Source: Escherichia phage vb_EcoM_bov9_1
Length of the DNA: 64,000 bases
Sequence record: MT884006.2
Direction: 5' to 3' (one strand)
The position numbers were made by a program, and so were the translations under genes. Under the pieces are notes generated by a model. It ran no database searches and was not told the origin of the DNA. It saw only the letters and a list, made by a program, of their open reading frames with translations. Positions 3,991 to 6,259 of the stretch are shown one piece after another; position 1 is the stretch's first letter, and the number at the start of each line of letters is the position of its first letter.

Positions 3991-4464
3991 TTATTTGATT
4001 TGTTTAGCAGACCAAATGCGGTCTTTAATAATTTTTTGGATGTCTTCAACATACTCAAGAGAGTGAGCATGTGGGTTATCTTTGAAACTATGAGCTCGCG
4101 CAAGTTTCTGGCCTTCGGTCTTAATTATCAAAAGTTCTTTAAGAATTGCTTCATACCTAGAGATAATTCCTTTAGCAATATTTTTTTCTTGTGCTGCTTT
4201 AGGGTCAGCCTTAGGAGCAGGTTTACCTGAAGCCTTTGCAAAAGCAGCTCCAGTAGCAACTAAACTTTTCCAGGCCATACTAACTGCATTTCCCGTAAAT
4301 CCTTCCGCTTTCATGTCGCGTGCGAACTGGAATCGCGATTCATCAGAAGCATCTTTATAAGAATATTTACCCGCTGCAATGGCTGCTTTTGCGACAGCTT
4401 GAATTTCGGTGCTAGATGCTTCATTTAACACCGCTTCATTTAAAAATTGAGTATATGATTTCAT
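3991..4464 (-). CDS. Internal-protein-like (IPII/IPIII-like) with N-terminal capsid targeting sequence
   Basis: 158 aa product starts MKSYTQFLNEAVLNEA, resembling the T4 internal-protein CTS (MKTYQEFIAEA) with L-x-E prohead protease sites; basic Ala/Lys-rich body; AGGAAA SD before ATG at 4464. The ORF-track extension to 4641 would run through a terminator hairpin. Confidence 0.6.
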   Translation of the reverse strand: MKSYTQFLNEAVLNEASSTEIQAVAKAAIAAGKYSYKDASDESRFQFARDMKAEGFTGNAVSMAWKSLVATGAAFAKASGKPAPKADPKAAQEKNIAKGIISRYEAILKELLIIKTEGQKLARAHSFKDNPHAHSLEYVEDIQKIIKDRIWSAKQIK

Positions 4465-4511
4465 CTTATTTCCTGTTTTAATTTGTAGATTTAATATACT
4501 AATATTTATAC

Positions 4512-4540
4512 CAAAAAGCCCCAACCTTTCGGTCGGGGCT
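4512..4540 (-). terminator. Intrinsic terminator (10 bp stem with one G-U, GAAA loop, U-tract)
   Basis: Minus strand reads AGCCCCGACC-GAAA-GGTTGGGGCT followed by TTTTTGG; ends the tRNA transcription unit. Confidence 0.65.
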
Positions 4541-4591
4541 AAGCCTTGCGGCAACCTTGTCGGGGTTCCACCTGCTAAGGCAAGTGTTTGT

Positions 4592-4683
4592 ACGAAACGC
4601 CGGGATTCGAACCCGGTTATTAAGTAGTTGACGCTACTCAATATTTTTAAAAGGCCATATCTCGACCATATCCGAACGTTCCG
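4592..4683 (-). ncRNA. tRNA-like element or stable RNA candidate (non-canonical)
   Basis: Intact T-arm (CCGGG-TTCGAAT-CCCGG) and a 7 bp acceptor-like stem, but about 15 extra nt in the body, a 6-nt loop where the anticodon loop should be, and no encoded CCA. Confidence 0.25.
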
Positions 4684-4856
4684 TCAAAAACGCTACTCGG
4701 CTTATGGCAAAGATATTTCCTCGAATCGATAATTCGGTGCGCCGTTTCTGCTGTGATATAAGGGGACATTAACAAAACATAAAGATTTATTAATGCCAGT
4801 CCTTAAACAGGGAACATCAGTCCGACGACTTGCCGGTAGCGACCCGGCTTCTTGTC

Positions 4857-4932
4857 TGGTCGAGGCAGTAGGGATCGAACCTACGACCCAGGACTTAGAA
4901 GGTCCTTGCTCTTCCTTCTGAGCTATGCCTCG
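4857..4932 (-). tRNA. tRNA-Arg (anticodon UCU)
   Basis: Manual cloverleaf: acceptor CGAGGCA/TGCCTCG, T-loop, anticodon loop CUUCUAA, CCA encoded. Confidence 0.85.
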
Positions 4933-4936
4933 TATT

Positions 4937-5011
4937 TGGCGGACGTGATAGGATTCGAACCTATAACCAATCGCTTAACAGGCGATCGCTCTGCCATTGA
5001 GCTACACATCC
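4937..5011 (-). tRNA. tRNA-Asn (anticodon GUU)
   Basis: Manual cloverleaf with all four arms regular, T-loop TTCGAAT, anticodon loop CUGUUAA, CCA encoded. Confidence 0.75.
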
Positions 5012-5015
5012 AAAT

Positions 5016-5102
5016 TGGTGGGGAGTGGTGGAGTCGAACCACCCGAGTCGCAATGACAATGGATTTACAGTCCACACCGCTACCTCTACGGGATAACTCC
5101 CC
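5016..5102 (-). tRNA. Putative type II tRNA-Tyr (anticodon GUA) with a weak D-stem
   Basis: 7 bp acceptor, T-arm GGTGG-TTCGACT-CCACC, anticodon arm with loop CUGUAAA, 15-nt variable arm resembling bacterial tRNA-Tyr; D-stem has only 2 clean pairs. Confidence 0.55.
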
Positions 5103-5111
5103 AAATTAATT

Positions 5112-5186
5112 TGGTGGCCCTGGGTGGAATTGAACCACCATCTGGCGATTATGAGTCGCTTGCTTGAACCTTCCAGCTACAGGGCC
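5112..5186 (-). tRNA. tRNA-Ile (anticodon CAU, presumably lysidine-modified)
   Basis: Manual cloverleaf; anticodon loop CUCAUAA; CCA encoded. Confidence 0.8.
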
Positions 5187-5187
5187 T

Positions 5188-5264
5188 TGGTGCTGATTGA
5201 CGGAATCGAACCGCCGACCTTCTCATTACAAGTGAGTTGCTCTACCTACTGAGCTAAATCAGCA
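5188..5264 (-). tRNA. tRNA-Thr (anticodon UGU)
   Basis: Manual cloverleaf; anticodon loop CUUGUAA; T-loop TTCGATT. Confidence 0.8.
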
Positions 5265-5268
5265 AAAC

Positions 5269-5358
5269 TGGCGGAGGCGATAGGATTTGAACCTATGAGT
5301 CGCTCCGGCGACTGCCGGTTTTCAAGACCGGTGCATTAAACCACTCTGCCACGCCTCC
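5269..5358 (-). tRNA. tRNA-Ser (anticodon UGA), type II
   Basis: Reverse complement GGAGGCGTGGCAGAGTGG...CCGGTCTTGAAAACCGG...GGTTCAAATCCTATCGCCTCCGCCA matches the T4 tRNA-Ser architecture. Confidence 0.9.
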
Positions 5359-5364
5359 AAATAT

Positions 5365-6015
5365 TTATATATTGTTAATTTGATTTAGAATTCTTTTTGC
5401 TTGAGTATGACTTACGCCAATATGCTTAGCATATTTAGATAATTCACCACGTTTAGAAAAATCATATAATTTAGAAATTTCTATTCTTCTTTTTCTTTCA
5501 TCCGCAGAAACTTTTGCTTCGTTTGCTTTTGCTATTTTACGTTTAGCTTCTTGAGAATGAGTTTTACCAGCAAAGCCGTTCTTCATTAATCCATTTGAAG
5601 ACCATCCTTTTAATTTTCCGTTAGAATGTGCCTTTTTAACACCCAATGAAATTAATTCGCGTTGCTGATCTGTCATAGGATAATTATTTATATGATCCCA
5701 TCCACCTTCACCTCCAAGTTTTAAATTATACACATCTGGTCTATTTAAAAACTCTTCTGTGACAATATTTTTCTCGGCTTCAAGCATAGATTCTTTATCA
5801 TCAAAATACTCTAATATTTCTTTAGAAAAATTTTCTATACCATATTTATCTTGGGCTCTTTTTAATAATTTACCAGAACCCATATATCCATCATCTAAAT
5901 TTTCGGTAGAATGCACACCAATATAAATTTTATTATTAATTTTATTTGTTATTTTATAAAGATAAAAATGCATATCAGTCCCTAATAAAGAACTGAGCGT
6001 CTCACGACGAGTCAT
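5365..6015 (-). CDS. segB: GIY-YIG homing endonuclease (SegB-like) embedded in the tRNA cluster
   Basis: N-terminal motif YLYKITNKINNKIYIGVH...GYMGSG typical of GIY-YIG Seg/I-TevI enzymes plus a basic C-terminal domain; the internal ATG at 5973 is a likelier start than 6015, which lies 5 nt from tRNA-Gly. Confidence 0.8.
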   Translation of the reverse strand: MTRRETLSSLLGTDMHFYLYKITNKINNKIYIGVHSTENLDDGYMGSGKLLKRAQDKYGIENFSKEILEYFDDKESMLEAEKNIVTEEFLNRPDVYNLKLGGEGGWDHINNYPMTDQQRELISLGVKKAHSNGKLKGWSSNGLMKNGFAGKTHSQEAKRKIAKANEAKVSADERKRRIEISKLYDFSKRGELSKYAKHIGVSHTQAKRILNQINNI

Positions 6016-6019
6016 AAAT

Positions 6020-6093
<74 letters not shown>

Positions 6094-6098
6094 AAATT

Positions 6099-6185
6099 TG
6101 GTGCGAGAAGTGGGACTCGAACCCACAAGGAAATCATTCCGCAGCATTTTAAGTGCTGTGCCTTTACCAATTTGACCATTCTCGC
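6099..6185 (-). tRNA. tRNA-Leu (anticodon UAA), type II
   Basis: Acceptor GCGAGAA/TTCTCGC, long variable arm, anticodon loop CUUAAAA. Confidence 0.8.
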
Positions 6186-6187
6186 GC

Positions 6188-6259
6188 TGGGAATAAAGGA
6201 CTCGAACCTTTGCATCCTGGAATCAAAATCCAGTGCCTTACCAACTTGGCTAATTCCCA
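6188..6259 (-). tRNA. tRNA-Gln (anticodon UUG), CCA not encoded
   Basis: Acceptor TGGGAAT/ATTCCCA, T-arm AAAGG-ACTCGAA-CCTTT, anticodon loop UUUUGAU; abuts tRNA-Leu. Confidence 0.75.

Follow-up and report, generated by a model that had tools for sequence, protein, structure and literature searches.

The untranslated interval between tRNA-Arg and an intrinsic terminator, positions 4541–4856 of the window (the whole 64,000-nt stretch of phage DNA analysed), is, by alignment, the orthologue of the rnaD–rnaC locus of phage T4, which specifies the species 2 and species 1 RNAs. Judged from covariation, rnaC is a tRNA-shaped molecule over its full 139 nt, with a big hairpin in the place of the D arm, and rnaD is, on comparative grounds, a separate, non-tRNA-like module with an invariant core and an interchangeable tip. 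The identity, anatomy and biogenesis of the two RNAs, taken jointly, can be stated with high confidence, the part on biogenesis being carried over from T4.

Layout of the locus and its identity with T4 rnaD–rnaC

The window belongs to a T4-like (Tequatrovirus) genome. Nine tRNAs were identified on its minus strand by ARAGORN and Rfam, and no tRNA-Pro gene was found in it. In the direction of transcription, tRNA-Arg is followed by rnaD, a 5-nt spacer, rnaC, a conserved trailer, and the terminator. The features of the locus are as follows.

6259..6020, minus strand: tRNA sub-cluster Gln-Leu-Gly (ARAGORN, Rfam)
5362..5369, minus strand: TATAAATA, which matches the late-promoter consensus of T4 exactly and lies 4 nt ahead of tRNA-Ser
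5358..4857, minus strand: tRNA sub-cluster Ser-Thr-Met-Tyr-Asn-Arg (ARAGORN, Rfam)
4857..4932, minus strand: tRNA-Arg(UCU), last tRNA of the second sub-cluster and upstream boundary of the interval (ARAGORN; Rfam tRNA, 65.8 bits)
4735..4855, minus strand: rnaD (species 2 RNA) orthologue, 121 nt by the RB3 annotation (model R2, 148 bits; ends given to within a few nt)
4730..4734, minus strand: spacer AAUUA, 5 nt, between rnaD and rnaC (a 5–6-nt gap lies here in the RB3 and T2L annotations)
4591..4729, minus strand: rnaC (species 1 RNA) orthologue, 139 nt (98.6% identity to T4; model R1, 166.5 bits)
4541..4590, minus strand: 3' trailer with a CAAA tail, a hairpin CACUUGC-CUUA-GCAGGUG (4586..4569), and a conserved CCCCGAC segment
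4512..4540, minus strand: intrinsic terminator closing the tRNA–rnaD–rnaC unit (terminator scan: 10-bp stem with 7 GC pairs, GAAA loop, T run)

An earlier note, made from the sequence alone, had described 4541–4856 as an untranslated segment bounded by a strong terminator at 4512..4540, and both statements hold: all open reading frames between tRNA-Arg and the terminator are of 42 aa or less with TTG starts, and the terminator scan places the hairpin proper at 4540..4517, with the T run after it. RNA folding, proposed there as a check, gave structures more stable than those of shuffled sequences both for the whole interval (z = −6.8) and for rnaC (4729..4591; MFE −50.6 kcal/mol, z = −5.2, with none of 200 shuffles as good). 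The trailer is almost invariant across homologues and too uniform for a structural test.

A BLAST search against phage genomes detected the interval in 805 records, with at least 80% of its length covered in 678 of them. In a three-way alignment that also included ATK47, it could be matched base for base with the T4 interval from tRNA-Arg to gene e.8, and the structure obtained from the alignments is backed by covariation. Annotated rnaC/rnaD features are present in the records of T4, ATK47, RB3, and T2L. In T4 strain 147 a feature of the homologous interval is annotated as "rnaC; small, stable RNA; species 1 RNA" and maps to 4729..4591, and 137 of the 139 positions (98.6%) are identical to the annotated T4 rnaC (KJ477685). 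In RB3 and T2L, rnaD ("species II RNA") is annotated directly after tRNA-Arg; the RB3 feature maps to 4855..4735 with 119 of 121 positions identical (98.3%), and identity to the T4 rnaD is 84%. Because the annotated T4 and RB3 features map onto the interval, it is the known rnaD–rnaC locus. The suggestion that a counterpart of the two stable small RNAs of T4 might lie here was thus correct for both of them, including the upstream half of the interval (4855..4735), which had escaped notice in the earlier note and is a second, separate RNA. The covariance-model search suggested along with the alignment recovered tRNA-Arg and no family at threshold for the interval RNAs: neither of them has a family in Rfam 15, only tRNAs reach the gathering threshold in the window, and within 4400–4950 nothing apart from tRNA-Arg comes near a family threshold.

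The T4 rnaC is of equal length, lies likewise between rnaD and the operon terminator, and differs from that of the present phage by two base substitutions. The rnaD RNAs of T4, RB3, and T2 (about 116–121 nt) likewise start just past tRNA-Arg and have the same 5' 46 nt and 3' 20 nt, and the differences from T4 lie in the middle hairpin. The upstream tRNAs are Ser-Thr-Met-Tyr-Asn-Arg in this phage and RB3, whereas in T4 the order is Ser-Thr-Ile-segB-Arg. The annotated ends of rnaC in the T4/RB3 and T2L records disagree by 1–2 nt, at both ends.

Since the genes of the species 1 and species 2 RNAs have long been known in T4, the window adds nothing new in this respect, and rnaD–rnaC is here an already known and ordinary component of a T4-like genome. 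Both T4 RNAs were sequenced in the 1970s; according to the classical literature, species 2 and species 1 share a common precursor, and host RNases take part. More recently, a Northern blot showed T4 RNAC as a discrete, stable species of about 140 nt, transcriptome data were obtained for rnaD, and both were classed as late RNAs (PMC9697503). The octamer TATAAATA ahead of tRNA-Ser is a candidate promoter of the unit extending from tRNA-Ser through tRNA-Arg to rnaD and rnaC, and such a role fits the late class of the two RNAs in T4 (PMC9697503). Their function was given as unknown in 2010 (PMC3014915), 2022 (PMC9697503), and 2025 (PMC12685909).

Two further open reading frames lie near the locus. 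The tRNA cluster is split, between tRNA-Gly and tRNA-Ser, by a 216-aa open reading frame for a seg-like GIY-YIG/NUMOD3 homing endonuclease (5365–6015, minus strand); in T4 strain 147, segB is located elsewhere, between tRNA-Ile and tRNA-Arg. Past the terminator there is a 158-aa open reading frame (3991–4467, minus strand) with no Pfam match and with its own late-promoter-like motif TATAAATA at 4503–4510. The T4 sequence differs at this site, running to gene e.8, and since phage Lutter also has a comparable inserted open reading frame there, the junction after the terminator appears to be an insertion hot spot.

The tRNA-like fold of rnaC and its loop–loop contact

The fold of rnaC was derived with the covariance model R1, built from sequences of Tequatrovirus, Mosigvirus, Gaprivervirus, Karamvirus, Moonvirus, Tegunavirus, Winklervirus, Gelderlandvirus, Kanagawavirus, and Marfavirus. 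It consists of the following elements.

4728..4722 (CGAUUCG) with 4599..4593 (CGUUUCG), minus strand: acceptor stem, 7 bp, formed by nt 2–8 and nt 131–137
4652..4721, minus strand: long hairpin of about 70 nt in the D-arm position, with apical loop UUGACG at 4687..4682 (19 of 26 counted pairs with compensatory changes)
4618..4643, minus strand: anticodon-like 10-bp stem with the 6-nt loop CGUCAA at 4633..4628 (8 of 10 pairs compensatory)
4600..4616, minus strand: T arm CCGGG-UUCGAAU-CCCGG, read from the sequence (98% paired, two compensatory pairs)

In the consensus, a 3-bp helix leads into an irregular hairpin of about 65 nt, which is followed by an A-rich linker; the T arm begins one nucleotide after the 10-bp stem and abuts the 3' strand of the terminal stem. 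The five counted pairs of the acceptor stem are 100% paired, two of them with compensatory changes, and its two U-U positions become U-A and C-G in Yersinia phage phiR1-RT. RNAalifold predicted 47 pairs, 20 of them compensatory. Over 23 sequences, 97.8% of the cells were paired, changes on both sides were found in 29 of the 47 pairs, and none of 500 shuffles matched this result; as a control, structures slid by 1–3 columns paired at about 40% in the same set. In a more diverse set (n = 20), with the loop–loop helix described below included, 95.8% were paired and 33 pairs were compensatory. Genuine tRNA genes in the homologous loci gave weak full-length matches to R1.

Parts of this architecture had been seen in the earlier note, namely the canonical T arm CCGGG-UUCGAAU-CCCGG, present at 4616..4600, and a 6-nt loop in place of an anticodon loop, which is the CGUCAA loop on the 10-bp stem (4643..4618). 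However, that note closed its tRNA-like fold at 4592..4683, with an oversized body and a 7-bp acceptor-like stem of 4683..4677 with 4599..4593. This pairing is possible in the present sequence, but it is only 81% paired and shows no compensatory changes in 20 homologues; this internal acceptor stem, in which ACGGAACG is the partner of the 3' strand, scores below the shuffled mean and was rejected. Since the 3' strand pairs with the true 5' end, the structured RNA is 4729..4591 and not 4683..4592, and what had looked like an oversized body is part of a longer conserved fold with the big hairpin in the D-arm position.

As in a canonical tRNA (RF00005), the two ends of rnaC pair into a 7-bp acceptor stem, next to which there are a 5-bp T stem with the T loop UUCGAAU and a single-stranded 3' tail of 4 nt that ends in CA. 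Unlike it, rnaC has the 70-nt hairpin instead of a D arm, only 1 nt where the variable loop would be, a stem of 10 bp with a 6-nt loop instead of 5 bp with a 7-nt anticodon loop, and a tail UACA instead of NCCA. The sequence after the stem is U-A-C-A-A-A, with U-U-C-A in Tegunavirus and U-C-C-A in Marfavirus, so that the NNCA tail may be said to resemble the NCCA end of a tRNA; the nucleotide preceding the acceptor stem (position −1) is usually U. The conserved tail CAAA runs to 4587 (4587–4590) and reads CAAU or CAGU in a few homologues; it may be part of the mature RNA or a processing site. At the same junction, Dhakavirus phages have GAA-CACUUGCC directly after rnaD.

ARAGORN and RF00005 called no tRNA within 4541–4856. 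Likewise, ARAGORN made no tmRNA call, Rfam giving only a 17-nt fragment at 10 bits (E = 8.9), and rnaC matched none of the Rfam families of viral 3' tRNA-like structures, mascRNA, and YrlA even at E values up to 10. The tRNA-like domain of tmRNA, viral 3' tRNA-like structures, mascRNA, and bacterial YrlA are nevertheless comparable to rnaC, being also non-decoding RNAs with an acceptor/T-arm surface, and by analogy with these domains rnaC would be expected to be handled by tRNA-processing enzymes. It lacks the alanine identity pair, and it differs from YrlA in that the ends of the latter form a Ro-binding stem, whereas those of rnaC form the acceptor stem. To our knowledge, a kissing contact between the loop in the anticodon position and a D-arm extension occurs in none of these four groups.

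The possibility of such a contact arises from the loop CGUCAA (4633..4628): it is fully complementary to UUGACG (4687..4682), the loop at the tip of the long hairpin, and the match ends at the loop boundaries. The loop–loop helix is Watson–Crick at all six positions in all 20–23 sequences, and two independent double changes have preserved it, CAUCAA/UUGAUG in Tegunavirus and CGCCAA/UUGGCG in Marfavirus. Because both loops covary in these two lineages, the data indicate a kissing contact, which may form within one molecule or between two; the evidence consists of the two variant lineages, and covariation is blind to the distinction between an intramolecular contact and a dimer.

The rnaD module and the distribution of both RNAs

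The predicted elements of rnaD, named P1 to P3 where they are helices, are listed below.

4832..4848, minus strand: P1, 5-bp hairpin GCCGG/CCGGC with the 7-nt loop GUCGCUA (5 of 5 pairs compensatory, 100% paired, n = 18)
4737..4829, minus strand: long irregular hairpin (RNAalifold consensus)
4829..4823 with 4744..4737, minus strand: P2, closing helix (one compensatory pair)
4816..4813 with 4752..4749, minus strand: P3, inner helix (one compensatory pair)

In P3, a U-A to A-U swap was found in 7 of 21 close homologues and in 4 of the 18 sequences used for pair counts. The minimum free energy structure from ViennaRNA pairs the rnaD core in another way (C37-G109, U38-A108, etc.), and it was replaced by the RNAalifold register of P3, since alignment A5 shows covariation of positions 38 and 107 from U-A to A-U. 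The rnaD core is near-invariant, which places most of its pairs beyond the reach of covariation.

Among the 21 close homologues, hardly any variation is seen in the first 46 nt and the last 20 nt of rnaD, and the middle hairpin is found as three sequences unrelated to one another, which have been recombined with different flanks. Model R2 also recovered more divergent copies from Moonvirus and Marfavirus, in which the middle has a further version, giving at least four versions altogether; the replacement hairpins are of the T2, JS10, and Moonvirus/Marfavirus types. The internal loops GGACUGA/GAAA and GUUCCCUG/UCACAGC are invariant and the apical hairpin is variable; these internal loops look like recognition sites, although neither could be matched to a known motif.

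Several known or conceivable motifs were considered for rnaD and rejected. A hammerhead (CUGAUG...GAAAC) is inconsistent with a U at core position A9 and an unpaired stem II register, and the Rfam hammerhead families were not matched. In GGACUGA/GAAA, two extra As part the tandem G-A pairs from the C stem of a canonical K-turn, so the element is at best a non-canonical K-turn. Pairing of the P1 loop (CGCUA) with the two GUAGCG motifs of rnaC involves 5–6 nt, is not conserved in divergent rnaD, and would link two RNAs that occur independently; it was attributed to chance. The terminator scan also reported a plus-strand terminator-like site at 4832–4848. This site is the complement of the P1 hairpin and a by-product of the minus-strand RNA, and thus not evidence of plus-strand termination.

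In all cases rnaD is preceded by the CCA of a tRNA 3' end and a spacer, either AAUA or AAUG. An open reading frame of about 115 aa (trna.2/RB69ORF150c) is inserted between tRNA-Arg and rnaD in Lutter, ATK47, and T2L (L002:1061-1405, L003:658-1002, L025:1343-1693). There the conserved rnaD sequence starts right past the stop codon of the inserted open reading frame, so that its 5' boundary (AAGAA) is kept whatever stands upstream.

The genomic arrangement in other phages shows that rnaD and rnaC are independent cassettes in phage tRNA clusters. Dhakavirus phages have rnaD fused straight to the trailer, without rnaC, and in Providencia phage PSTCR6 rnaD lies between tRNA-Arg and tRNA-Ile, also without rnaC. 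Conversely, rnaC stands amid ordinary tRNA genes in Gelderlandvirus, Winklervirus, Karamvirus, and phage Ursula, and the rnaD model found no copy in the examined DNA flanking rnaC of these phages. The matches all came from phages of Enterobacterales. A pattern across the rnaC body was absent from all of the 185,579 genomes of bacteria and archaea that were scanned and was found in 11 metagenome contigs, all of them T4-like or Marfavirus-like; pattern scans of metagenomes and viral contigs yielded almost no extra diversity.

The rnaC and rnaD RNAs are among the oldest unexplained phage RNAs, without an Rfam family and routinely mis-annotated as hypothetical proteins. The comparative fold could seed an RNA family, and the models would allow clean annotation over several hundred T4-like genomes.

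Biogenesis and possible functions

Considering the layout of the locus, it is plausible that both RNAs are transcribed together with the tRNAs, probably at least partly from TATAAATA before tRNA-Ser. Host tRNA-maturation enzymes would then cut them from the tRNA-operon transcript: RNase P could act at the acceptor stem of rnaC, and the remaining ends would be generated by endonucleases and 3' exonucleases, the trailer being discarded.

We tentatively propose, as one possibility suggested by analogy, that rnaC is a non-decoding tRNA mimic. It could be recognised by proteins that read the acceptor/T-arm surface, and it would be barred from translation because its tail is NACA and not NCCA and its anticodon-equivalent loop is presumably locked by the kissing contact. 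It could thus serve as a decoy or sponge that takes up some tRNA-binding factor of the host or the phage, and rnaD could be an RNA that binds protein and influences growth on certain hosts. The decoy idea is drawn from shape, cassette-like distribution, and analogy only, and a literature search on tRNA-like phage decoys returned nothing concerning rnaC or rnaD. The one functional hint concerns rnaD, in which a convergent single-nucleotide polymorphism appeared in three lines when a T4-like phage was adapted to a semi-permissive host (PMC12685909); from the coordinates given in that paper we computed that it falls in the variable middle hairpin. A more specific version, which we regard as doubtful, would make rnaC a member of an undescribed class of tRNA mimics with tRNA-like maturation and a kissing-locked loop, serving as a decoy for tRNA-binding or tRNA-cleaving host factors (e.g., in tRNA-targeting immunity), and rnaD an independent protein-binding RNA tuning growth on natural hosts. 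As starting points for experiments, the comparative models provide the acceptor stem formed by the RNA ends, the two kissing loops, the invariant core of rnaD with its exchangeable tip, and the cassette-like distribution.

It is unlikely, in our estimate, that the RNAs are by-products without any function in trans, the interval being a cis-acting processing or termination region whose pieces persist through structure alone. A location between the last tRNA and the terminator would suit such a region, as would the invariable position of rnaD behind a tRNA end and its spacer, and the acceptor/T-arm shape of rnaC would recruit RNase P and thereby set the neighbouring ends. T4 deletions lacking the rnaC and rnaD genes are viable on laboratory hosts, in which these genes are dispensable. 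However, an acceptor/T-arm minihelix would suffice as a processing signal, whereas the 70-nt hairpin, the 10-bp stem, the loop–loop complementarity, and several single-stranded motifs are also conserved and covarying in about ten genera, and rnaC also occurs mid-cluster, where ordinary tRNAs already provide processing sites. Moreover, the rnaD polymorphism was selected three times in host adaptation (PMC12685909).

Quite unlikely is a role of both as regulatory small RNAs that base-pair with phage or host mRNAs via conserved single-stranded motifs. The invariant unpaired stretches GUUCCCUG and UCACAGC of rnaD and the A-rich linker of rnaC could serve such pairing, and the term "small regulatory RNAs" is used in PMC9697503. 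However, there is no known target, the conserved loops that stand out most in rnaC are each other's complement and not free, and tRNA-like ends are atypical for Hfq-type small RNAs.

The earlier note had also considered a tRNA pseudogene, and a decaying gene at 4592..4683 is very improbable. The canonical T arm and the acceptor-like stem gave some reason for it, and Rfam tRNA-Sec matches weakly over exactly 4592..4683 (17 bits, E = 1.4), but with a gathering score of 47 this match is far too low, neither ARAGORN nor the general tRNA model called the segment, and the internal acceptor pairing is not conserved. The 139-nt RNA, its non-tRNA parts included, is 98.6% identical to that of T4, these parts are conserved and covarying in about ten genera, and there are 33 compensatory changes; such identity together with compensatory change points to purifying selection and not to decay.

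That the interval encodes a small protein is hardly conceivable: many phage records have hypothetical-protein CDS features over the homologous region and a 42-aa open reading frame is present at 4775..4647, but the latter straddles the rnaD/rnaC boundary and has a TTG start, the annotated frames vary in frame and strand among records, the substitutions are paired compensatory changes in stems, and T4 RNAC has been detected as RNA (PMC9697503). In GenBank, such "hypothetical protein" features lie over rnaC or rnaD on either strand (L019:1516-1653, L042:616-753, L038:542-715, L005:1007-1431), and because of the covariation they are almost certainly spurious calls.
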